From Euryarchaeota archaeon UBA182 (GTDB taxonomy: Archaea > Thermoplasmatota > Poseidoniia > Poseidoniales > Thalassarchaeaceae): 64,000 nt of DNA. The stretch is from the NCBI GenBank assembly GCA_002495675.1, contig DAGH01000001.1, forward strand, positions 50,592 to 114,591. Direction: 5' to 3'. Position numbers and translations under genes: made by a program. Shown here one piece after another: positions 3,001 to 62,616 of the stretch; position 1 is the first letter of the stretch; each line of letters opens with the position of its first letter. A model generated the notes under the pieces. It did no database searches and was not told the DNA's origin. It saw only the letters and a program-made list of their open reading frames with translations.

Positions 3001-5728
3001 TAGGGTGCCAAACATGGTTGACGGCAAAGCGCAATTTGACTACAACTGGACGTGGTACTCACAGTATGCAGCAGGTACATACGGCATCAAAGCAGATTTC
3101 ACCAACTCCAACTTCTACTTCACGGGCAACCAGTCATCTGTTTTGTCCGCCACTGGCGCTTACATCAACGTATCAGTGATTGGAACGAGCCAATTCTTAC
3201 CGGTTGAGGACTCTAGACTTTATCGTGGAGTAAACAGAACCGTGGAAGTGAGGCTGGTGGACAACTCCTTGCAACCACTGAGAGAGGTCCCAGTCACATA
3301 TTCATGGAACGCAGACGGCACTAATGGACTTACATCAACCGACAAAAATGGAATATTCAGGGTCAATCTCTCAATCGGACAGAATCACCCCCTGGGTGCA
3401 TTCACACTCACCTATGAATACACGGGAGACGCCTTCCACCAATCTTCGACAGGTCAGACGGAACTTTGGGTCGTCTCACGAACCTTCATCGACCTACAAT
3501 CCAGCGTCTCGGGAGGATTGGTGAGTGGTCAAGACTGGTTCTTCACAGCCCAGGTGACCGATGATAATCGAACTGCATTTACGAAGGATTCAGGACAGGC
3601 ATTGGATGGCTGTGGGGAAAACGGAGGAAATATCACCTTGATTCTGGAAGGGTTAGACTTCGAGGATAGGGTTCACAGGAAAATTGTGGAGACACTTTGT
3701 CCGAGCGCTGGTGCCATTACACACCAACTTACTTTGGATCCCGAGATACTCACCTCAGACGCCGAATCATTCCTCCCAGATGGTTTTGGACCAGTAAATG
3801 TCATTCTCAGATTTAATGAAAACCTTCCACATGAGGGATGCGGTCCACTTGGCCCCAACGCCTTGGAGATCGCTGGAGCATGGGACGAATGCACTCTTGA
3901 TATCTACAATGATCATTACAGGAGAGTACTACAGTTCCAAGAAGAGGGATTCTATCTTCTCGGGGGGACATCGTTGAGTGTAGACGAGCAAACAGTCTAC
4001 ACTTCCGAGGCAGATCCCATAACTGGTGAATCTATCCAAAAGCCAATGTCTGTAACCGGCCAATTGGTAGATGAACTTGGGAGGAATCTAAGCTTCCGAA
4101 ATGTGAAGGTCACCTACGAGATGCTAGGAAGTCAGCTAGGAATAAGAACATGCCTTCCTGGCACCACGGATGCCAACGGATTCTTTGAGATACTATGCTC
4201 ACTTGATGGCGTTCAAGCAGGCCAAGCAAAAGTACAGGTGATGTACAACTCATGGGAGAACGCAGATCGTTATCGATATCTGAATGCAACAAAAACCATG
4301 TTATTCCCTGTGTACTCCAACTCTACATTGCAGATGATTGAAATCGGCCCATTCAGGAATGACGTGGATACGTACACCTTCGCGAATGGCAGCACATTCC
4401 CAGTTTTGTACCTCAAGGAATCCTTCCACTTCGATGCAAGACTTACGCAGGTGAATGGAAATCCAGTAGGTGGCAAGTGCCTAAACATCTATCTTGATCC
4501 AGAGACCAATACCAGACCTTTCGCAACAGCAAGGACCAATGACGGAACAGGCTCAGTTGAGTGGTTTTCAGGTGACAAGGATGACAATCCGAGCCAGAGA
4601 GGGGTAGACCCAAGCGGCGACCAGCTTGAAGGCTTCAGAACAGTGAGAGTCGCCTATGAACCTACACGATCTGTCCCAGGAGGGTGTGAGATAGAAAACA
4701 GCCCAGTGATCAATGGCTCTTTCGTGGACGTCGAAGTCCTAGTACAAAGCAGAGTCGATATTCTATTGAGCCAACAATGGGCACGTCCCGAGGGGTATCA
4801 AGTTGGTGAGATTGTTGAGGGTTCGGTCGCAATACTCCGAGATAGGATCGACTTAGCAGTGGAGGGGCAGACCGTAGTATTCTCTCAGTATTACAACAAC
4901 GGAACCGGCTGGGAGCTCTTCAAGGTCTATTTCACTACCACCAATGAGCAGGGTACAGCCAATTTCAGTTTCGAATACACAGGCCGCGATCTGCCAGGGG
5001 AACAATCCGCTATCCTCGGAGGCCCTGAAGCAGTGAATGGAGAATGGAAAATAGAGGTAGAGTTCCAGGGTGATTATCGATTCGTAAGCTCAGATCTCAG
5101 CAACACTCCTAGGATAAAACTCGCAGATCCGGTTGACTCAGACCAACAAAGCTTCTTCACGGCTAGGGTCATGACGGTCTTGGCACTTATCCTAGTCTCG
5201 ACTCTATTGCTGGCTGCATACATGTACAGGAATTACGTCGAAAGAAGGAGAATAGAGGTACTTAGGGGCATATTGACAGATTCGTTGTGGGCCCTGCAGG
5301 GACGAAATTCGTATGTCGAGACTATCTTCAATTGCTACAAGGACTTAGTTAAGTTCTTCAGACAGAGAGGAGCGATGAAGAAAGTTTACGAAACCACTAG
5401 AGAATTCGAATATGCAGTGAATAAGATGCTCGGCGGAATAGCGCCCCCAGAGGATCTATCAGAATTCTTCAGCATATTCGAGGAAGCAAGGTATTCCGAC
5501 CATGAGATCGGAGCAGACCAGAGAGATAGAGCCATAGCGGCCCTTCAAAACATTATCACCCATCTATCAAAATCATTGGGAGAGAGCATGCTCAGCCGAA
5601 TACGCTCTGAGGGCTTAGAGATGTATGGCGCAGCGACCAAGGCTGGAACCTTCGTGGACTCCGAAGGCCAGGTTAGAATTGCCGGAGAGCAGGACGACTC
5701 AGATGAGAAGACGGGATTCAACATATGA
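2..5728 (+). CDS. Giant cell-surface protein, 5'-partial. It has Asp-rich Ca-binding (thrombospondin type-3-like) repeats, a long beta-rich ectodomain, a single C-terminal TM helix and a DUF4129-like cytoplasmic tail.
   Basis: The frame is open from nt 2 to the ATG at 89 with no stop, so the gene probably starts left of the window. The N-terminal 500 aa are full of WDHDNDG.PD / DxDxDG motifs. There are more than 25 N-x-S/T sequons. The TM segment is VMTVLALILVSTLLLAAYMY near nt 5170-5230. The tail (TTREFEYAV...FFSIFEEARYSDHEI) resembles DUF4129. Confidence 0.75.
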   Translation, partial: HGFVLPYNGYQDDFTLGPPTIVSNGNIPEMYWHVMMKWSPWNGNNYFDLDIDGDSLINGIDVDIDADGVPNWWDRDEGSDGRLDVNDPAYGGSLDDGECDLSMSFLLGLDDDQISCGLALAWLYGFPLSQARSSNGVPFVLPYSSRPDPLYTDGPYNGENSAGINDFTCETNCFHFDFLGPADAGPSAAVTFEDIINNRDLWTAYVGINFGMFQWVSDGNGNLFPDEFADLLDNNEDPDDDCGAPVTGTPNPSCMVNDTADLDDDFDGVFDHWDVDDDNNGVWDFFEVDVNDDLDDDTNTEPLGNFFTGYNCDDQDDDGTDTDPDGDGWYQSVWDRGRLGQGLLFPQYYDVDNDNDGVPDGEDPDDDNNGVLDIDQELICFQGEEQSPWDHDNDGIPDWADTDWDGDGLSNTIELAGGGASHPIAPWDHDNDGLRDDIDPDDDEDGMNDEDEVLLWPTRFNSNSTNPWDHDDYGTGSGLYDPTNASTGPDAQDEDDDSDGIPDIDWDHLEENALCTDSSGAQYPSSDWDNDNDCILDADDKPPTRITLNPIQTVWLDAQFPAVFSGRVDVLDMETGAFVPGTDLPVRIVIEYARNSTEALRTVEVLTNEMGNFTVGQYLYPEDIEVGPSSRYNLRADVIEMFAHDGSSSTPAPLEVRGNTTVDYVSWTYFRSDEQPLFVDFKVHYDADWQRGVFDNRIKHAPVSFTVAGGPFGNRTEPTLFDGYGFGYRADSNGWVSLTFVQQQGAQGFWKQVRWNSTMDNGVGQPSGGYEEIVWDDNAKQHQYVSRYEYTNTSLPVGDYEFIGFSRPDLGAEWPFPYLNGSESETFYIRSMHRMYIEAVIYTTSLRPVYFWDATQFIGSSFGAWRAVFHAPSLQAANISFDNASIGKPYPILWNGTSAGLTGEAAKLRPFLSANLTHWSIAMQNGGDFNAPPCGPANPADPFSRTRCEIMPELFTGESLRVVGEVFNRTFVPWSSDPIALQVDLDQNLIFSGAQETGFARVPNMVDGKAQFDYNWTWYSQYAAGTYGIKADFTNSNFYFTGNQSSVLSATGAYINVSVIGTSQFLPVEDSRLYRGVNRTVEVRLVDNSLQPLREVPVTYSWNADGTNGLTSTDKNGIFRVNLSIGQNHPLGAFTLTYEYTGDAFHQSSTGQTELWVVSRTFIDLQSSVSGGLVSGQDWFFTAQVTDDNRTAFTKDSGQALDGCGENGGNITLILEGLDFEDRVHRKIVETLCPSAGAITHQLTLDPEILTSDAESFLPDGFGPVNVILRFNENLPHEGCGPLGPNALEIAGAWDECTLDIYNDHYRRVLQFQEEGFYLLGGTSLSVDEQTVYTSEADPITGESIQKPMSVTGQLVDELGRNLSFRNVKVTYEMLGSQLGIRTCLPGTTDANGFFEILCSLDGVQAGQAKVQVMYNSWENADRYRYLNATKTMLFPVYSNSTLQMIEIGPFRNDVDTYTFANGSTFPVLYLKESFHFDARLTQVNGNPVGGKCLNIYLDPETNTRPFATARTNDGTGSVEWFSGDKDDNPSQRGVDPSGDQLEGFRTVRVAYEPTRSVPGGCEIENSPVINGSFVDVEVLVQSRVDILLSQQWARPEGYQVGEIVEGSVAILRDRIDLAVEGQTVVFSQYYNNGTGWELFKVYFTTTNEQGTANFSFEYTGRDLPGEQSAILGGPEAVNGEWKIEVEFQGDYRFVSSDLSNTPRIKLADPVDSDQQSFFTARVMTVLALILVSTLLLAAYMYRNYVERRRIEVLRGILTDSLWALQGRNSYVETIFNCYKDLVKFFRQRGAMKKVYETTREFEYAVNKMLGGIAPPEDLSEFFSIFEEARYSDHEIGADQRDRAIAALQNIITHLSKSLGESMLSRIRSEGLEMYGAATKAGTFVDSEGQVRIAGEQDDSDEKTGFNI

Positions 5729-7350: not shown

Positions 7351-10400
<3,050 letters not shown>

Positions 10401-12864: not shown

Positions 12865-12941
12865 GGACCCATAGTGTAGCCTGGATATCACATGAGCTTG
12901 CGGAGCTTGTAACCCGTGTTCGAATCGCGGTGGGTCCGCCA
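12865..12941 (+). tRNA. tRNA-Arg (anticodon GCG), CCA encoded
   Basis: Acceptor GGACCCA/TGGGTCC. D arm GTGT-AGCCTGGATA-TCAC. Anticodon stem TGAGC/GCTTG with loop TTGCGGA. T arm CCGTG-TTCGAAT-CGCGG. Ends with G-CCA. Confidence 0.85.
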
Positions 12942-13022: not shown

Positions 13023-13099
13023 GGACCCATAGTGTAGCCTGGATATCACTCTAGCCTCCGGAGCTGGAAACCCGTGTTCGAATCGCGGTGGGTCCGCCA
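13023..13099 (+). tRNA. tRNA-Arg (anticodon CCG), CCA encoded
   Basis: Acceptor, D and T arms are identical to the upstream tRNA-Arg. Anticodon stem CTAGC/GCTGG with loop CTCCGGA. Confidence 0.85.
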
Positions 13100-54814: not shown

Positions 54815-56476
54815 ATGTTCATGGATATACAAAGCCTCTTGATTTTCTGGGGGGTGCTGGTAGGGTTCTTTATTCTCACGAGCCGAGGGCTTGGCGTCTT
54901 GGGGGATGTATTGAGGCCGACAGGTCTGTTCTTGCTTGAGAAAGCCCTTGGCCCAGCAATCGATTTCGCTGAGGGGAAACCCGGCTCAGCAGCGCGGGCG
55001 TGGATCATCCTAGGAACGCTTTGGCTGTTCGTGTCAATCTGCTTTACCTTCCTCGGCGTTTGGGTCGGTCATGATCCATATGCTTTGATTTCCTTGTCGG
55101 GTTGGGGCTACAGTCCATCGTCACCCACCCTGATATCTGCTGGTACAGTTGCTGGATTGTATGGGTTCATCGGGATGGTGATCATTGGCTCATCATTCCA
55201 CGTTCTACCGATACTCTGTGGAACTCCGGGAGGACTGCCAAGCGAGAGGAACGGCACTCTGGTCTCAACACCTTGGACAGTGGGTGTTCTGATATTGTTC
55301 ATTGCAGCCCACAATCCCACCCCGTTTGGAATCGATATAACATTAGTCGGTGTAGCAGTAATGGCGCTTGCCTATGGTGCAGTCTTGGTAAATCTACTAT
55401 TGACACTTGCTAATAGAACTCAGAGTCCCAAAGAACCGGGTTGGCTCCTGATCCTAGCTTTCATCGCCGGACCTGCATCCCTCATTGCGTCCTCGATAAC
55501 AAACGGACCCTCCTTGCTGGCAGATCCATGGCTTGTAACCAAGCTACTCGCAGTTCCTTTCTTCCTTTGGTCCGTAGCAGCCCTTTCGCTATATTCAGCA
55601 GCGATAGGCTCTAATTCCCCTCTTTGGTCCAGAACTCTGAGTGGAACCCTGCTCGTTGGATTGATCATAACTTCATCCGCCTACCAGAGCCTGGATGGAG
55701 GTTTGTTCTCTGATTTGATAACTCAAGTATCTGCTGTACCAGACGTTTCAGATTCAACTAGGATGTTTGGCACCTTTCTGATCGCTCTTTCATTAGCTCC
55801 CATGATTGCCCTGTCTGCAAACATAATCGGAACGGTTCGGGCCGGTGGGAAATCACCAGAGATTACCAATGGAATGGCGATCCTGGTCACCTCCTCAATG
55901 GCATTGGTAATTCTTTGGCTACTGAATTATGCGTTCAGATCCCCATCTATCGCGGGCTTGAATACTTATGAGCCCCTATTGGGAACGATTGAGCTAATGA
56001 CTCTCTGGCTTTTCTTCATACCCATGGCTATGGGGATACAGCTGCATCTCTATCCATCGATTACAAAGAGATCGCTGCCGTCCCCAGAAAGAACTAGGAT
56101 TGGATATTGGATGTTTGTAACCGCTACATCTGCTGGACTGATCTGCATGCTAATCTCAGAGTCGATCAACATATCAACATCCCAACTTGAAGTAGAGTTC
56201 AACTCAACACTGTCAGACAGATTCGCGGTTGTCGGTTCAGTCATCTTCTATGGTGCGGTTATTGCCATTATACTTCATACTGTCAATGTTTTGAGAGGGT
56301 TATTTCACGGAAGAATACAACTTGAAAGCTCAATGTCAGATATCAGAAAAATAGAGACCTTTACGATAGCAGAATCAATAACGATTCGCTCGATTCTGAC
56401 GGCCGGTGCGGATGTGGACACTATGTTGGTTCCAGTATCTGATACCGAAATACCGGGCGCTCCTACCGAATTGTAA
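54815..56476 (+). CDS. Polytopic membrane protein (12-14 predicted TM helices), function unknown
   Basis: 553 aa and hydrophobic throughout. The hydrophilic C-terminal tail is about 60 aa. I could not assign it to a family. Confidence 0.6.
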   Translation: MFMDIQSLLIFWGVLVGFFILTSRGLGVLGDVLRPTGLFLLEKALGPAIDFAEGKPGSAARAWIILGTLWLFVSICFTFLGVWVGHDPYALISLSGWGYSPSSPTLISAGTVAGLYGFIGMVIIGSSFHVLPILCGTPGGLPSERNGTLVSTPWTVGVLILFIAAHNPTPFGIDITLVGVAVMALAYGAVLVNLLLTLANRTQSPKEPGWLLILAFIAGPASLIASSITNGPSLLADPWLVTKLLAVPFFLWSVAALSLYSAAIGSNSPLWSRTLSGTLLVGLIITSSAYQSLDGGLFSDLITQVSAVPDVSDSTRMFGTFLIALSLAPMIALSANIIGTVRAGGKSPEITNGMAILVTSSMALVILWLLNYAFRSPSIAGLNTYEPLLGTIELMTLWLFFIPMAMGIQLHLYPSITKRSLPSPERTRIGYWMFVTATSAGLICMLISESINISTSQLEVEFNSTLSDRFAVVGSVIFYGAVIAIILHTVNVLRGLFHGRIQLESSMSDIRKIETFTIAESITIRSILTAGADVDTMLVPVSDTEIPGAPTEL

Positions 56477-56516: not shown

Positions 56517-57785
56517 ATGAGGGTGGGCCTCGTAGGCAAGCCAAATGTTGGCAAATCAACAGCATTTTCATCACTTACCAGCACGTTGGTAGAGATAGCT
56601 GATTACCCCTTTACAACCATAGAACCCAATATTGGGATTGCATGGATACCAGTGCCAGATCCATGCAGGTGTGCTGACTTACCCACTAGGACCTCAAAAA
56701 GCCAAGACTCACAGGGGGATGGTGGAGGTAGCACATGCAATCCAAGGACAGGTTCTTGCAAAGACTTTCGACGTTTAATCCCAATAACACTGGTTGACGT
56801 CGCAGGCCTCGTACCAGGAGCGAGCGAGGGAAGGGGGAGAGGGAACCAATTCCTATCAGACCTGTCGCGATGTGATGCATTGATCCAAATTGTAGATGGA
56901 TCAATGTCAACCGATTTGGAGGGGAATCATTCAGAGCCATTAGCCTCGACTCCTATTGACGAATACAACTTCCTAACCGAGGAGATCGAACTCTGGCTCG
57001 CTGGCATACTCAAACAAGGCTGGTCCAGAGGAGCCCGTAGAGCCCAATCTGGAGGTGAGAGGGCCCTATTAGACCTCATTACTAACCTCATAAGCGGCCT
57101 AGGTGGCACGGAAAAGGACGCAATTCTTGGCCTACAGGCCGCGAGGGAAATCGCATCTGACAACCAGCCATGGGACTGGGGCGATACTGTGATCAGAAGG
57201 ATGGCATCTGAAATAAGACGTTCAATGTTCCCAGTGGCTGTTGCAATAAACAAGGCGGATAAGGTAGAGCCCAACAAATTAAAATCAACTATCAAGGATT
57301 TTGAGGATTTGAGCCTGCTTTGCCTACCGACATCAGCGGAGGTTGAACTTGCATTGAACAAAGCGAAAAAAGCGGGTTTGATATCGTATTCAGTTGGGGA
57401 TAGCCCCGCTAAATTCAACCTAGAACCTCAAAATAATCCCTCAGATTCACAGAGAGGCATTTTGGAGAAGATACAGAATAAGATGTCAAGTATTGAAGGC
57501 GCTGGATTGGTTGATCTCTTGTCACAGGTCGTTTTTTCTAGTTTGTCGAGAATTGTCGTCTATCCAGTCTCTGACGAGGGAAGGTGGACTGACGCAGAAA
57601 ACAGAATCCTTCCGGATGCCATATTGCTCCCACAAGGATCAACCGCCAGGGACCTTGCATACGCGGTGCACACTGACTTGGGCAATGGTTTCATCAGGGC
57701 AACTAATGCAGTTTCAGGCAGATCAATACGAGGGGACTCAGAATTGTCCATGTCTGACGTAGTCAAGATACACTCTAAGTCATAG
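56517..57785 (+). CDS. YchF/OLA1-family P-loop GTPase/ATPase with a C-terminal TGS domain (archaeal type)
   Basis: G1 is GKPNVGKST, G2 is YPFTTIEPN, G3 is DVAGLV and G4 is NKAD. A Cys-rich insert reads CRC...C...C. The TGS-like C-terminus is LPQGSTARDLAYAVHTDLG. Confidence 0.8.
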   Translation: MRVGLVGKPNVGKSTAFSSLTSTLVEIADYPFTTIEPNIGIAWIPVPDPCRCADLPTRTSKSQDSQGDGGGSTCNPRTGSCKDFRRLIPITLVDVAGLVPGASEGRGRGNQFLSDLSRCDALIQIVDGSMSTDLEGNHSEPLASTPIDEYNFLTEEIELWLAGILKQGWSRGARRAQSGGERALLDLITNLISGLGGTEKDAILGLQAAREIASDNQPWDWGDTVIRRMASEIRRSMFPVAVAINKADKVEPNKLKSTIKDFEDLSLLCLPTSAEVELALNKAKKAGLISYSVGDSPAKFNLEPQNNPSDSQRGILEKIQNKMSSIEGAGLVDLLSQVVFSSLSRIVVYPVSDEGRWTDAENRILPDAILLPQGSTARDLAYAVHTDLGNGFIRATNAVSGRSIRGDSELSMSDVVKIHSKS

Positions 57786-57843
57786 GCCAATTATTGTTCA
57801 CACTAACAGGGGTTTCCCGATTGTAGCACTAATGATGTTGCAC

Positions 57844-58158
57844 TTAGCCAAAGAGGGAGCCCAGGCCTTCAAACCCGGAGTCATCCTCCTCTTCCTCTTC
57901 AGCAGCTTCCTCAGCTGGGGCTGCTGCTTCAGAGGATCCACCACCAGATCCTGCGGCGGGGGTCGCCGCGGCCACTGGTGCTGCGATTGCTGTGGACATC
58001 GCTTCCTCAATGTCAACCGACGCAAGTGAGGCAACTAGCCCCTTGACTCGCGCAGCGTCTACATCTACTCCTGCGGATTCGAGAACCGCAGTAATGCCCT
58101 TTTCGTCAATCGTCTTTCCTGCTGAGTGCAGTATCATTGCAGCGTATACATACTCCAT
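57844..58158 (-). CDS. rpl12: 50S ribosomal stalk protein P1 (L12e)
   Basis: MEYVYAAMILHSAGK...EEEEEDDSGFEGLGSLFG. The ORF track starts 9 nt upstream. Confidence 0.9.
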   Translation of the reverse strand: MEYVYAAMILHSAGKTIDEKGITAVLESAGVDVDAARVKGLVASLASVDIEEAMSTAIAAPVAAATPAAGSGGGSSEAAAPAEEAAEEEEEDDSGFEGLGSLFG

Positions 58159-58173
58159 TTCTTTCACCTTTTT

Positions 58174-59256
58174 TTATCCAAAGAGGTCACCGAGTCCTCC
58201 GAACCCTGCATCCTCCTCTTCCTCCTCTTCCTCTTCTTCGGATTGAGAATCCGAATCACCTTCGTCAGATGAGGAATCTGACGAATTACCGCTCTCTGTT
58301 GAGATCGAAGTGCTTTCATCTAGCATGGCGACGATCTCTTCGTCAAGTGCGATGGAATCTAATTGACTAGCAAGCCCTAGGGCTTGGGATTTTACTTTAG
58401 AGAGAATCAATGCTGAGGTTTCATCATTGATTATCGTGGAATTAACTGCTACGGAAAGTGCCTCACCCTTTGCTTTGGCTATCAAGGAAGGCATCGTCTG
58501 AGGAGTGAAGTACGTTATTTGACATGCAAGATTGAACGCACTAGAAACAGCGCTAATCAGATCGTTCCTCACATCCTCCGTATTGATGTCTAGGTCATCC
58601 GCCATCAAGACAAGGCCATCCTCCATGGCTCCTGTGAGTATAATCCCTATTTCGATGGGATTTATGTCCAGTTTTGAGAGCATGATCCCGAGATCTGCGG
58701 ATATCGGCTGGCCCTTTTCCACAGCCGTGACAGTCTTTTGAATTGCGACTTTGCCCTTGTCGATCTTAGCTGGTATGCCAACGGCATTGAACTCTCCAAC
58801 AATAGGGCCAGGACCGAACGGAGTCGGACCCTTTTCCACGACGATGTCCATCGGAGCAAGCTCCCCTTCCTTTGCCGCACGACCTTGGCGAGTTTTCGAT
58901 AGTTCTGCGCTTAGCTCGAAAGCGTTCATTGAATTAGTGTGAACAATAGCGGGTTGGGTTGAAGATTCAAACAGCTGTTCTAGGGTTTCGGAGTCTTTCC
59001 CGGATGACTCCCATGCCCTTCTAATGAGGGTTTTTTTGGCCATTGTGATGGTTAACTTCGATCTCAATGAGGCGCGCATGTCGAGCATGTTCTTGCCAGG
59101 AACGCCATCTATGTCCACGATCCCTATCACTCCATCTGATCCAAGGATCTCAACCAACTCGTCAACTCTGGTCCGCTTCCATGGAGCGACTTTTGGAGAG
59201 ATCAAGATACCACCTCTAACTTCACAGACGGGCCCATTGAAGTCTTGATATAGCAT
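58174..59256 (-). CDS. rpl10: 50S ribosomal stalk protein P0 (uL10)
   Basis: APWKRTRVDELVEIL...C-terminal EEEEEEEEDAGFGGLGDLFG. The start may instead be the TTG at 59205, which forms a TTGA overlap with the L1 stop. Confidence 0.9.
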   Translation of the reverse strand: MLYQDFNGPVCEVRGGILISPKVAPWKRTRVDELVEILGSDGVIGIVDIDGVPGKNMLDMRASLRSKLTITMAKKTLIRRAWESSGKDSETLEQLFESSTQPAIVHTNSMNAFELSAELSKTRQGRAAKEGELAPMDIVVEKGPTPFGPGPIVGEFNAVGIPAKIDKGKVAIQKTVTAVEKGQPISADLGIMLSKLDINPIEIGIILTGAMEDGLVLMADDLDINTEDVRNDLISAVSSAFNLACQITYFTPQTMPSLIAKAKGEALSVAVNSTIINDETSALILSKVKSQALGLASQLDSIALDEEIVAMLDESTSISTESGNSSDSSSDEGDSDSQSEEEEEEEEEDAGFGGLGDLFG

Positions 59257-59858
59257 GACCGTATGTTCATGGAACCACGCTCCAACTTACCGATGACTCT
59301 GTTCCAGACTGCTAATGCGTTTCTCGTTAGTTCCTCTAGAGTCTGGTCTTTGGTACCGAATGCTGCGTGGAAAGTCATTCGATCTCTTGACCTCACGATG
59401 GTCGTGTCGCTGAGGCCAGCAGCCATCATCCCCGGGTCTAGGTTCGGAGGCACAGGACGAGGCATTTTCCCCCTCGGCCCTAGCACTATCCCGAGATAGC
59501 GCCCTACTGTTCCCATGTGGGGGATCTCGGATAGGAAGAAATCCATTTTGTTTGCCAACTTTCTGGCTTTCTGCCTGTTTCCACCAAGATCTTCGATTGT
59601 TGTGGGATCAATAATCTCCAGACCTGCGGCTTGTGCCTTGGTAGCCATCTCTCCACCGGCGAACATTGCGATTTTTACGGATCTGCCTCGTCCAGCCGGT
59701 AGCCGAACCTCTTCCTGGATTCTGTTTGCTGGATTCTTCAGATCCACGTCCTTGATGGTGAAAGCTATTTCTAGGCTTTCTGTGAACTTACGCTCTTTCG
59801 AAGATCCGATTGCGGATTCTATTGCATTTCTCAGTAATTCTTCCATGTTATTTTTCAC
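59202..59858 (-). CDS. rpl1: 50S ribosomal protein L1 (uL1)
   Basis: KERKFTESLEIAFTIKDVDLKNP...LGPRGKMPRPVPP. Confidence 0.9.
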   Translation of the reverse strand: MKNNMEELLRNAIESAIGSSKERKFTESLEIAFTIKDVDLKNPANRIQEEVRLPAGRGRSVKIAMFAGGEMATKAQAAGLEIIDPTTIEDLGGNRQKARKLANKMDFFLSEIPHMGTVGRYLGIVLGPRGKMPRPVPPNLDPGMMAAGLSDTTIVRSRDRMTFHAAFGTKDQTLEELTRNALAVWNRVIGKLERGSMNIRSCYIKTSMGPSVKLEVVS

Positions 59859-59903: not shown

Positions 59904-60185
59904 CTATGCAAAATGCTCGTTAAATCTCCCTTCCTTTGTGGCCTTGATGGCTTCTCTGGCGTGCATGCCCTCTACCTTGATTCTCATGGCAACACATGTG
60001 CCCATGACTTCTCTGCACATTGCGGAGATATCTGAGCCTGTTAGTTTGGATTTCTGCTTTCCAACAACTGACTTGATCTGCTCAATGGTGATATTCTCAG
60101 TAGCGCTATCGACATCACCGTTGCATTTCTTCAGACCCAATTCTTGAAGGATCAGATGAGGAGTTTCATTACGGTCGGACATCAC
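59904..60185 (-). CDS. rpl11: Ribosomal protein L11 (uL11), C-terminal rRNA-binding domain only
   Basis: 93 aa. TPHLILQELGLKKCNG...ITIEQIKSV...REVMGTCVAMRIKVEG aligns with L11 residues from about 70 to the end. The N-terminal domain (PGGKATPGPPLGPALG) is absent. Only 70 nt separate this ORF from the spt5 stop, and an in-frame TAA lies at 60225-60227. Confidence 0.7.
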   Translation of the reverse strand: MMSDRNETPHLILQELGLKKCNGDVDSATENITIEQIKSVVGKQKSKLTGSDISAMCREVMGTCVAMRIKVEGMHAREAIKATKEGRFNEHFA

Positions 60186-60256
60186 AAAACACCTCGTCGC
60201 GGTTCCGGCCCACCTACTCTTCCTTTATGAGCGTGATGCAAACCAGAACGACCCTT

Positions 60257-61150
60257 TCACTCCACTCGTTGTGTCACCCTTACTTGATCGGCCCTGACTG
60301 TCAATGCAACGGGCACCAGTGCCTCGTAGAGCTCCACCGTCACTTCTTCCTTCGATTCTGTGACCCTGACTACACGTGCTGATTGGCCTCGGAAGGCCCC
60401 ACCCGTGATCTCAACTATGCAACCCTCCTCTATGCCAGCAGTGGCTGCCTTAGGCTCAAGGTACGGGAGTACATCCTCGAGTGGCGATTCCCCATCGAGT
60501 ACCTTCCTGCAGTTCTTCATGGGCGTGGTGCTCATCCCGGTTCTGCCGATCACCTTCTCGACGTGATGCTTGGCAGATGCTTCTACGAAGACATACCCCT
60601 TCATGTGTTGTGGTTGCAATACGCTGAATATCTCATCTTGGATGTCCTCTAGCGATCCAGTCCCTGAGAGCCTCGCCCTGATCTCCTTCGCGACATTCTG
60701 CTCCTGACCTATCGAGGTTTTTAGGATGTAAAGGAAAGAGGCGACGTCACCGTATAACTCGCTCAGTCGTGGCATTGAGTACTCCTTTTCACCAATCCTC
60801 CCGGGGTCTATCCATTCACAGTTTTTGTAAATCGTTTTAGCCGAAATGTCGGCCTTGTCCCCCAAGAAGAGCAGCGGAGTGACCTCGACTAGCCTTGCAG
60901 GTGCGCTGGAGGTTTTTCCGAACGAGATACCACGTGCAGCACCTGATCTGACGTATGTGAGCGCATCAGCTTCGATGCCTGTACATTCTGATATTCTTGA
61001 AATTACTGCTTCGATGTCATCTGGGTCACCGGCTCCATATACCCCGTCCCAGGCACCTGGGAGATCTCCGATATCGTCTGATCTTTGCATCAACAATACT
61101 CTATCTTCTGACCGAACAAAGGCTACAAACGCTTCTGACATGCAAATCAC
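60257..61150 (-). CDS. spt5: Transcription elongation factor Spt5 (NGN plus KOW) with a roughly 140-aa N-terminal Nudix-like extension
   Basis: The NGN domain is LYILKTSIGQEQNVAKEI...KGYVFVEA. The KOW domain is GCIVEITGGAFRGQSARVVRV. N-terminal residues 1-125 read FVRSEDRVLLMQRSDD..LPGAWDGVYGAGDPDDIEAVISRISECTGI, which is a Nudix-fold pattern with a degenerate box. Confidence 0.8.
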   Translation of the reverse strand: MICMSEAFVAFVRSEDRVLLMQRSDDIGDLPGAWDGVYGAGDPDDIEAVISRISECTGIEADALTYVRSGAARGISFGKTSSAPARLVEVTPLLFLGDKADISAKTIYKNCEWIDPGRIGEKEYSMPRLSELYGDVASFLYILKTSIGQEQNVAKEIRARLSGTGSLEDIQDEIFSVLQPQHMKGYVFVEASAKHHVEKVIGRTGMSTTPMKNCRKVLDGESPLEDVLPYLEPKAATAGIEEGCIVEITGGAFRGQSARVVRVTESKEEVTVELYEALVPVALTVRADQVRVTQRVE

Positions 61151-61157
61151 CCCACTC

Positions 61158-61427
61158 TTAAGACCCGGTTAACCATCCAAAGAAAGATGGTAAGGCATTG
61201 TCCATGAGGGCCAACACGACGAATCCAATAGCCCCAAGAACGAACATCCCAATTCCACAGACGATTACCGTCTGCCTAAACTCCAACTTGGAAGGCTTCT
61301 TTGCCATCTTCAGGATCCTTGCTGTTGATCCTGTTTGCAGTCTACGTACTCGTCCCTCAATCTCATCCTGCCATGTTTGAACACGAGTTTCTATTGGTCC
61401 TCTTTGACTAGTCTCGATGGCCATCAC
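61158..61427 (-). CDS. secE: Preprotein translocase subunit SecE (Sec61 gamma)
   Basis: ARILKMAKKPSKLEFRQTVIVCGIGMFVLGAIGFVV. Canonical position upstream of spt5. Confidence 0.85.
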   Translation of the reverse strand: MMAIETSQRGPIETRVQTWQDEIEGRVRRLQTGSTARILKMAKKPSKLEFRQTVIVCGIGMFVLGAIGFVVLALMDNALPSFFGWLTGS

Positions 61428-61497: not shown

Positions 61498-62616
61498 TCA
61501 TCCAATGAATTGTATCGATCTAGCCCGCGCATCAACGAGGTCCGTCCTCTTCCTAGAGCCGTGAATCTGTTCGCTTCGGACTCCAGTTAACACAACTAGG
61601 ACCCTAACATACCCCTCGTGTTCCGAGGCCTCAGTAGTTGCACCCCAAATGATTCTTGCATGGGGGGCAATCCTACTGCCGATAATCTTGGCACATTCTT
61701 CTGCCTCTCCGAGCGTCAAATCGTTGCCTCCCACGACATTGATCAGTGCACCTTTAGCATCACTTACGTCCAATTCTAGCAACGGCGAGGATAGAGCCTC
61801 ATCGGTTGCGATCCTTATTCGATCTCCGCCGGTAGCTTCTCCATGTCCTATCATCGCTACACCACCACCATTCATCATTACGGACCGAAGATCCTCAAAG
61901 TCCAGATTCACAATCCCCTCCTTGGCGATCATGTCGGACACTCCCCTTATGCTCTGCAACAGGAGCTCGTCAGCCACCCTGAAGGCTGCATCAAGGGGTA
62001 GATCTCTTACACCTTCGACAGACAATAATTTCTCATTGGGGAGTACTATGACCGTGTCGCATACCTCGGTGAGTCTCTCAAGCCCCCAATCCGCATTCTG
62101 TTTTCTAGTCGAGCCTTCTGAGGAAAATGGGTAAGTCACAATTGCAATGGTTAAGGCCCCTGCAGACTTACAAAGTCTGGCCACTACGTGGGCCGACCCA
62201 GTGCCAGTGCCACCACCCAACCCAGCAGTAATGAATGCTAGGTCACAGCCTTCGACTTCCTTGGCCAACATCGGCTCAGATTCAAATGCTGCTTGCTCTC
62301 CTTTTTCAGGGTCTCCTCCAGCCCCTCTCCCCCGAGCAGTCCTTCCAATCAGCATTTTTTCTGCAACGTTGACACGTAATAGGTGCTGAGCGTCGGTATT
62401 TACAGCCAAGCCCCGAACTTTTTCTCTGTTGAACAATCCTTCTGAACTCAATCTGGCGATTGTGTTTGATCCACAACCCCCGCAACCAAACACCCTGATG
62501 TTGGGTTGGAGGGTTTCCAGCAGCCTCTCTAAATCTTCGTCATTAGAAGCCCCATCATTTGGATGTTCTTCTGGAGAAGGCTCTTGCTCCGATAATCTAT
62601 CTATGAGGTGCTTCAC
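61498..62616 (-). CDS. ftsZ: Cell division protein FtsZ
   Basis: Tubulin signature GLGGGTGTGSAHVVA, plus NTDAQHL and IVTYPFSSEG. Confidence 0.9.
   Translation of the reverse strand: MKHLIDRLSEQEPSPEEHPNDGASNDEDLERLLETLQPNIRVFGCGGCGSNTIARLSSEGLFNREKVRGLAVNTDAQHLLRVNVAEKMLIGRTARGRGAGGDPEKGEQAAFESEPMLAKEVEGCDLAFITAGLGGGTGTGSAHVVARLCKSAGALTIAIVTYPFSSEGSTRKQNADWGLERLTEVCDTVIVLPNEKLLSVEGVRDLPLDAAFRVADELLLQSIRGVSDMIAKEGIVNLDFEDLRSVMMNGGGVAMIGHGEATGGDRIRIATDEALSSPLLELDVSDAKGALINVVGGNDLTLGEAEECAKIIGSRIAPHARIIWGATTEASEHEGYVRVLVVLTGVRSEQIHGSRKRTDLVDARARSIQFIG

Follow-up and report, generated by a model that had tools for sequence, protein, structure and literature searches.

Gene order and the uL11 reading frame

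The window analysed here is a 64-kb stretch (64,000 nt) of contig DAGH01000001.1 from Euryarchaeota archaeon UBA182, a member of the Thalassarchaeaceae (Marine Group IIb) in the order Poseidoniales (Marine Group II, MGII), and the gene in question is its ribosomal protein uL11 (L11) gene, which encodes the C-terminal, rRNA-binding domain (C-domain) only. uL11 is a universally conserved ribosomal protein whose two-domain architecture is treated as invariant; its N-terminal domain (N-domain), mobile and located at the stalk base, changes position with every translation factor and supplies half of the thiopeptide antibiotic pocket. Poseidoniales are among the most abundant archaea of the surface ocean. 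The gene lies in the block secE-spt5-L11-L1-P0-P1 described in the initial annotation, which we recovered as claimed in the window and in all related loci, the 92-aa gene occupying the canonical archaeal L11 position in each of them (Table 1).

Between the spt5 stop codon (60257-60259) and L11 there are 71 nt to a GTG at 60185 and 74 nt to an ATG at 60182, close to the 70 nt first reported, and such a gap therefore leaves no room for an N-domain of ~70 codons. Reading the sequence also confirmed the in-frame TAA at 60225-60227. A mis-called start or an upstream extension is thus ruled out as the cause of the missing domain, as had been argued from this locus alone: the frame is shut by the TAA, and the upstream open frame resembles L11 in none of the 85 orthologous loci described below.

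Domain content and predicted fold

In a Pfam search, the 92-aa protein matched PF00298 (Ribosomal_L11) over residues 8-71 (E 5.4e-8, 33.6 bits against a cut-off of 21.4 bits) and gave no match to PF03946 (Ribosomal_L11_N). Residues 8-92 align to residues 73-158 of Pyrococcus furiosus L11 (4v6u_BH, E 1.2e-9), and the L11 proteins of Methanocaldococcus jannaschii and Haloarcula marismortui align over the equivalent part. The inter-domain linker marks the exact start of the match (TPHLILQELGL; TSQLIKKELGL in P. furiosus), and a profile built from 21 homologues recovered residues 73-159 of P. furiosus L11 from the PDB with E 1.7e-16. The proposal that this gene encodes the C-domain alone, from the linker to the C-terminus, is therefore borne out against all three archaeal proteins. 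Only positions 73-158 of the 164 in NF002232, the NCBIfam equivalog model for archaeal L11, were matched, with a score of 58.4 bits against a cut-off of 162 bits (248.7 bits for the Thermoplasmata control P0318), and because this cut-off was failed the protein carries the NCBI name 'hypothetical protein'.

An AlphaFold2 model of the protein had a mean predicted local distance difference test score (pLDDT) of 77.8, and disorder was confined to residues 1-5. In Foldseek, the top PDB match was 5d8h_C, the M. jannaschii L11 C-domain in a P-stalk base complex (TM-score over the query, TMq, 0.78; root-mean-square deviation 2.0 A), and the model also matched H. marismortui L11 (4v9f_I, TMq 0.77), the isolated L11 C-domain crystal and nuclear magnetic resonance structures 1hc8 (with RNA of the GTPase-associated centre), 1y39 and 1fow, and 1mms. 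The predicted fold thus matches that of the L11 C-domain. Within the RNA-recognition helix, the glycine of the widely conserved S-M-G motif is replaced by an arginine that is invariant in Poseidoniales, reading AMR in Marine Group IIb (MGIIb; residues 66-67 of the 92-aa protein, about 59982-59987 on the minus strand) and SMR in a deeper lineage of the order. This change may provide a compensatory RNA contact.

Conservation across Poseidoniales

Among 5.8 billion protein clusters, a word-indexed search identified 55 homologous ones, nearly all exactly 92 aa long and reaching down to 54% identity; where names are given, they are Thalassarchaeaceae or Poseidoniales, and some clusters occur on hundreds of contigs, the longest of 1.6-1.7 Mb. 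The order ftsZ-secE-spt5 (288-299 aa)-L11C (92 aa)-L1-L10-L12, where L11C denotes the C-domain-only gene, was constant in eight metagenome contigs spanning the diversity of these clusters. Using an L1 alignment as anchor, we fetched a further 80 loci from GTDB species representatives, all of MGIIb type, with L1 70-100% identical to that of the window; they include the single 1.6-Mb contig JBJLBP010000001.1. The window itself is essentially identical to the metagenome-assembled genomes (MAGs) UBA487 and UBA558.

The initial annotation had allowed that relatives might carry a normal L11 at this site and that the present copy might be a pseudogene. In the 85 loci containing the region, about 76 of them from GTDB species representatives, a 92-codon L11 gene was present in every case (85/85), 85-90 nt past the spt5 stop. 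The median ratio of nonsynonymous to synonymous substitution rates (dN/dS; Nei-Gojobori method, NG86) was 0.07 for the ten pairs in which dS was not saturated, and the alignment of 21 homologues (A3) holds 27 invariant columns. Judged by these substitution patterns, the 92-aa gene is under purifying selection and is not a pseudogene.

The deeper Poseidoniales lineage carries a 93-aa form (P0058/P0115; a cluster of 272 members named 'Candidatus Poseidoniales archaeon') that is 45-46% identical to the window protein and lies in the order secE-spt5 (304 aa)-L11C-L1-L10-L12. Its L1 and Spt5 are 64% and 47% identical to those of the window, its GC content is 44%, and it is most likely Marine Group IIa (MGIIa). 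The presence of the 93-aa form in this MGIIa-like lineage therefore places the truncation before a split within Poseidoniales.

Start codon and upstream element

An ATG equivalent to that at 60182-60180 is the start codon in 82 of the 85 orthologues, whereas the codon at 60183-60185 varies among them (AGC, TTC, AGT, TGT and others). The GTG at 60183-60185 on the minus strand, taken as the start in the open reading frame (ORF) list and the initial annotation, is thus probably not the start codon. Because the ATG is conserved and the preceding codon is not, we take the protein to be 92 aa long (MSDRNETPH...); the 93 aa given before are correct when counted from the GTG at 60185, but not from the conserved ATG. 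A Shine-Dalgarno-like motif precedes the ATG (Table 1), and G-rich motifs stand at the matching place in the orthologous intergenic regions.

Further upstream lies a conserved intergenic element composed of a TATA-like box followed by GGGAG and GGTCGGC at a spacing of N5-6. Its MGIIb consensus, from an alignment of 76 distinct intergenic regions, is CAtCAc.cTCAaAtAGGGAgAGcAGGTCGgCggG, and MGIIa-like loci carry a related ATTATATAGGGGAGTTTAGTCGGC at the equivalent place. The element stands 25-60 nt ahead of the ATG in MGIIb loci; its position is ~9930-9975 in comparison locus L001 and ~4935-4970 in the MGIIa-like loci L089/L090. From its sequence, it is likely to be the promoter or control region of the L11C-L1-P0-P1 operon, and the conserved TATA-like box suggests that L11C, L1, P0 and P1 are transcribed together as a separate unit that begins with the truncated gene. 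It could combine a promoter with a regulator site, or could represent an L1-type autoregulatory site. Comparison of the operon region with Rfam gave no known ribosomal leader or other match, and a scan of the region for bacterial-type promoters and terminators, a type of scan that does not apply to archaea, returned nothing.

Table 1. Features of the L11C locus in the window (window coordinates)
Feature	Position	Strand	Details
ftsZ	61498-62616	-	First gene of the block, before secE
secE	61158-61427	-	Part of the gene block
Spt5/NusG gene (NGN + KOW)	60257-61150	-	Pfam Spt5-NGN at aa 140-202, KOW at aa 245-273
Conserved intergenic element CATCACG-CTCATAAAGG-AAGAGTAGGTGGGCCGG	60205-60238	-	TATA-like box, then GGGAG..GGTCGGC; includes the TAA at 60225-60227
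GAGGTG, Shine-Dalgarno-like motif	60190-60195	-	7 nt upstream of the ATG; read from the sequence
uL11 C-terminal (rRNA-binding) domain gene	59904-60182	-	92 aa; ATG 60182-60180; TAG stop 59904-59906
uL1 gene	59202-59846	-	PF00687, E 1.8e-41; start set from L1 alignment
P0 (uL10) gene	58174-~59205	-	Ribosomal_L10 + RL10P_insert
P1 (aL12) stalk protein gene	57844-58167	-	Translation with acidic tail ...EEEEEDDSGFEGLGSLFG

Searches for a separately encoded N-domain

Three full-length L11 queries run with tblastn against the window matched the C-domain only. A six-frame hmmsearch with the N-domain hidden Markov model (HMM) over the window and 96 loci (732 kb) matched nothing apart from the positive controls, L093 and L094. 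No L11_N match came from the Spt5 extension, from the pair of unknown ORFs behind L12 in other MGIIb loci or from the ORF pair inserted in L090 (all described below). An N-domain hidden in the window or in the neighbouring unknown ORFs is thus ruled out by tblastn, Pfam and the six-frame HMM scan, and the absence first noted at this gene extends from the protein to the 64-kb window and to 732 kb of related loci.

Short proteins consisting of the N-domain gave 1408 matches in a profile search, of which we examined the best 120. All of these were sporadic single-contig fragments or partial proteins, and none of the 120 had a Tara tag or occurred on as many contigs as abundant Poseidoniales proteins typically do. 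L093 and L094, mid-contig N-domain-only ORFs from unrelated lineages, each have a C-domain ORF directly downstream; they appear to result from a local frameshift or from a split into adjacent genes, a situation unlike that in Poseidoniales.

uL11 proteins lacking the N-domain outside Poseidoniales

An exhaustive HMMER search of 1.84 billion representative proteins gave further C-domain-only forms. A low-GC, abundant marine lineage encodes an 89-aa form whose gene overlaps the spt5 stop codon, the Spt5 itself being of normal length (149 aa; L091/L092, 5001-5270). L095 (4001-4489; 162 aa) and L098 (2946-3425; 159 aa, from a MAG named 'Candidatus Nanoarchaeia archaeon') combine the C-domain with a Lys/Glu/Ala-rich C-terminal tail and share the gene order FKBP-ftsZ-secE-spt5-L11C; such tailed Nanoarchaeia-type forms span 159-165 aa. 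The N-domain-less genes of L092, L095 and L098 are in the canonical position. A 94-aa form follows a 261-aa Spt5 in L096 (4001-4285), and a 93-aa form is placed after S3-L29 in a Micrarchaeota MAG (L097, 3001-3282). From the gene order shared with L098 and one named homologue, we tentatively place L091/L092 in the DPANN/Nanoarchaeia.

The starts of the truncated forms all cluster at one linker position, give or take a few residues (NF002232 positions 67-71). The DPANN-type forms keep the S-M-G glycine, and because they are only 28-34% identical to the window protein, their N-domain losses are probably independent of that in Poseidoniales. No N-domain was found in the 3-5-kb flanks of the truncated genes outside Poseidoniales, L097 and L098 included. 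Thermoplasmata MAGs encode an ordinary two-domain L11 of 158-160 aa. One further hit to the C-domain query, the 3417-aa bacterial surface protein P0061 (E 2e-13), was a false positive and not a homologue: its score is the sum of 13 weak matches to HYR_4C repeats, and the protein carries a CHU_C type IX secretion (T9SS) signal.

Neighbouring genes and other features of the loci

Downstream of L11C, the uL1 start lies 57 nt past the L11C stop. The P0 start is probably a TTG overlapping the L1 stop, to judge from the 4-nt L1/L10 overlap in L001-L008, and the P1 orthologue is annotated with PF00428 in L001 and other loci. An Rfam scan found no rRNA gene in the window, and the L11 site of 23S rRNA hence lies outside it; three tRNA genes on the plus strand (7376-7450, 12865-12938 and 13023-13096) are the only gathering-level Rfam matches.

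The Spt5 protein has an N-terminal extension of ~135 aa (60749-61150, minus strand) with a weak NUDIX match (E 0.0095) below the Pfam cut-off. Spt5 is 288-304 aa long in MGIIb and MGIIa-like loci (L001, 9015-9914; L089, 3904-4818), compared with 149-158 aa in the DPANN-type loci, and is 47% identical over its full length between the two Poseidoniales lineages, the extension being conserved. The Spt5 of L096 (261 aa) is also extended. In the MGIIa-like locus L090, two ORFs of 161 and 129 aa are inserted between spt5 and L11C (4008-4884); they have no significant Pfam match, the conserved upstream element stays beside L11C, and the similar locus L089 lacks them.

Two conserved ORFs of ~158-177 and 223-248 aa, with no Pfam match, follow P1 in most MGIIb loci and in part of the MGIIa-like ones (L001, 12504-13728; L005, 6504-7826; L007, 6322-7612). 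The clade of the window lacks them at 57786-57843, and a convergent YchF/Obg-like GTPase gene (56517-57785) lies directly next to the block. A gene for a 553-aa multi-pass membrane protein (54815-56476, plus strand; L001, 15088-16752) accompanies the GTPase gene throughout MGIIb as a conserved neighbour, and no Pfam family is recorded for its orthologues.

Origin and role of the truncated protein

The L11 C-domain alone binds the rRNA of the GTPase region and stabilises its tertiary fold, while the N-domain is mobile, makes few RNA contacts, shifts with EF-G, EF-Tu and release factors, and forms the thiostrepton site (PMC1802607). Yeast lacking both uL11 genes is reported to be viable but very slow-growing (PMC2175356). 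On the basis of these facts and of the gene anatomy (domain content, predicted fold, canonical position, lineage-wide conservation and purifying selection), we consider it likely that the gene encodes a natural uL11 without an N-domain and without a replacement, left by an ancient in-place deletion. Such a deletion, in an ancestor of Poseidoniales, would have taken the first 66-70 or so codons, encoding the factor- and thiopeptide-binding domain, and would have left a new start codon in the inter-domain linker. The 92-aa remnant would be expressed from the canonical spt5-L11-L1-P0-P1 position through its own Shine-Dalgarno motif and the conserved promoter-like element, and would act as an RNA clamp at the stalk base, binding and stabilising 23S helices 43/44 beside P0. 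Poseidoniales ribosomes would then contain the uL11 C-domain alone, with no mobile N-domain, and it would fall to the P0/P1 stalk and the sarcin-ricin loop to recruit factors and to activate their GTPase.

Only the unusual length would point to a fault specific to this contig, either a collapsed or deleted stretch of assembly or a gene in decay. The structure is identical, however, in 85/85 loci, which come from separate projects and assemblers and include long-read single-contig MAGs and single-cell genomes, and the conserved start and stop positions and low dN/dS do not fit decay; given this recurrence and the purifying selection, we reject an artefact or pseudogene, whose probability we regard as negligible. 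More serious is a split gene, in which the N-domain would come from a separate gene or a fusion and join the ribosome non-covalently beside the 92-aa C-domain. N-domain-only ORFs do exist in public data, the near-invariant MS.RNETPH segment, predicted to be partly disordered, could serve as a docking site, and the N-domain scans covered only the window and related loci. Against this stand the empty scans of the window, of the 732 kb and of the neighbouring unknown ORFs, the adjacent N/C arrangement of both inspected N-domain-only ORFs (L093 and L094), and the best 120 of the 1408 profile matches, which lack the Tara tag or contig counts mentioned above. An untethered N-domain would also be mechanistically unattractive, as the domain makes little contact with RNA by itself and normally depends on the linker to hold it in place (PMC1802607), and we judge a split gene unlikely.

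A normal full-length L11 encoded elsewhere, with the 92-aa protein as an accessory or regulatory paralogue, shares the same limit of scan coverage in its favour, and L11 paralogues are known in some bacteria, which offers a precedent. Yet the 92-aa gene fills the canonical spt5-L11-L1-P0-P1 slot in every locus, and C-domain searches gave only 92-93-aa forms under Poseidoniales or Thalassarchaeaceae names. No named full-length L11 from Poseidoniales was among the best 120 matches listed, a weak form of evidence, and strong purifying selection fits an essential single-copy ribosomal gene. We therefore regard an extra copy as very unlikely.

Several points nevertheless weigh against a natural N-domain-less uL11 with no replacement. 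The N-domain search spans ~4% of one genome together with many copies of one locus, and an N-domain gene or full-length L11 elsewhere in Poseidoniales genomes is possible; a diverged Poseidoniales protein made of the N-domain only would rank below the best 120 of 1408 matches. The N-terminal nine residues, MS.RNETPH, hardly vary in MGIIb even though disorder is predicted for five of them, residues 1-5, and this conservation could hint at a binding partner, in principle a trans-acting domain. Finally, we infer from the gene both that the 92-aa protein is present in ribosomes and that no N-domain is supplied in trans. With these points included, we still favour, on balance, the broader proposal that the whole order Poseidoniales is without any uL11 N-domain, with no relocated copy and no paralogue, that this state has been stable since before the MGIIa/MGIIb split, and that the DPANN losses are independent.

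Implications

A full-text literature search, across a searchable literature that is incomplete, found no description of an N-domain-less L11 for MGII/Poseidoniales or DPANN. The protein falls outside the two-domain definition of the uL11 family while keeping position and fold, and presumably also the RNA-clamp function. A ribosome specialist would not expect a factor-contacting domain to be lost across a major free-living order. If the loss is real, the N-domain is dispensable in nature without genome reduction or parasitism, and Poseidoniales would offer a natural experiment on what the domain is for. They would possess a natural minimal GTPase-associated centre that could be compared structurally with canonical archaeal ribosomes, and aEF1A, aEF2, aIF5B and the release and rescue factors would be cycled via the P-stalk and the sarcin-ricin loop only. 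Intrinsic insensitivity to thiopeptides would be predicted for a major marine group, the thiostrepton/micrococcin pocket being absent; this and any other physiological consequence are predictions. In genome annotation, the PF03946 marker will look missing, which could bias completeness estimates of Poseidoniales genomes.

Comparison with known uL11 systems

Canonical archaeal uL11 (P. furiosus 4v6u_BH; M. jannaschii 5col/5d8h; H. marismortui 1s72_I) is homologous to the Poseidoniales protein over the whole length of the C-domain, including the archaeal C-terminal helix, and the two are alike in predicted fold and in position after spt5 and before L1-P0-P1. They differ in that the canonical protein has an N-domain (~residues 1-68, with the PGPPLGP motif), absent from the 92-aa protein, and a glycine in S-M-G where Poseidoniales have the invariant arginine.

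The 92-aa protein is effectively a natural version of L11-C76, the fragment studied in vitro both free and together with the 58-nt GTPase-centre RNA (1hc8, 1y39, 1fow). L11-C76, however, is an engineered cut of two-domain bacterial proteins, whereas the Poseidoniales form is genome-encoded and lineage-wide, and carries the archaeal C-terminal helix as well as six extra conserved residues at its N-terminus.

Among laboratory strains, thiostrepton-resistant bacterial mutants have L11 absent or its N-domain altered, loss removing the thiopeptide binding pocket, and they show that a ribosome can work when the uL11 N-domain, or indeed the whole protein, is missing. Yeast without RPL12A/B (PMC2175356) resembles them in this respect. 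These mutants show growth defects, whereas the Poseidoniales state is fixed in an abundant free-living order under purifying selection. The closest natural parallels are the DPANN-type forms (L091/L092, L095, L097 and L098), which are likewise C-domain-only, begin at nearly the same linker position and in most cases directly follow spt5, but differ from the Poseidoniales protein in the Lys/Glu/Ala-rich tail of several members, the retained S-M-G glycine and a normal-length Spt5.

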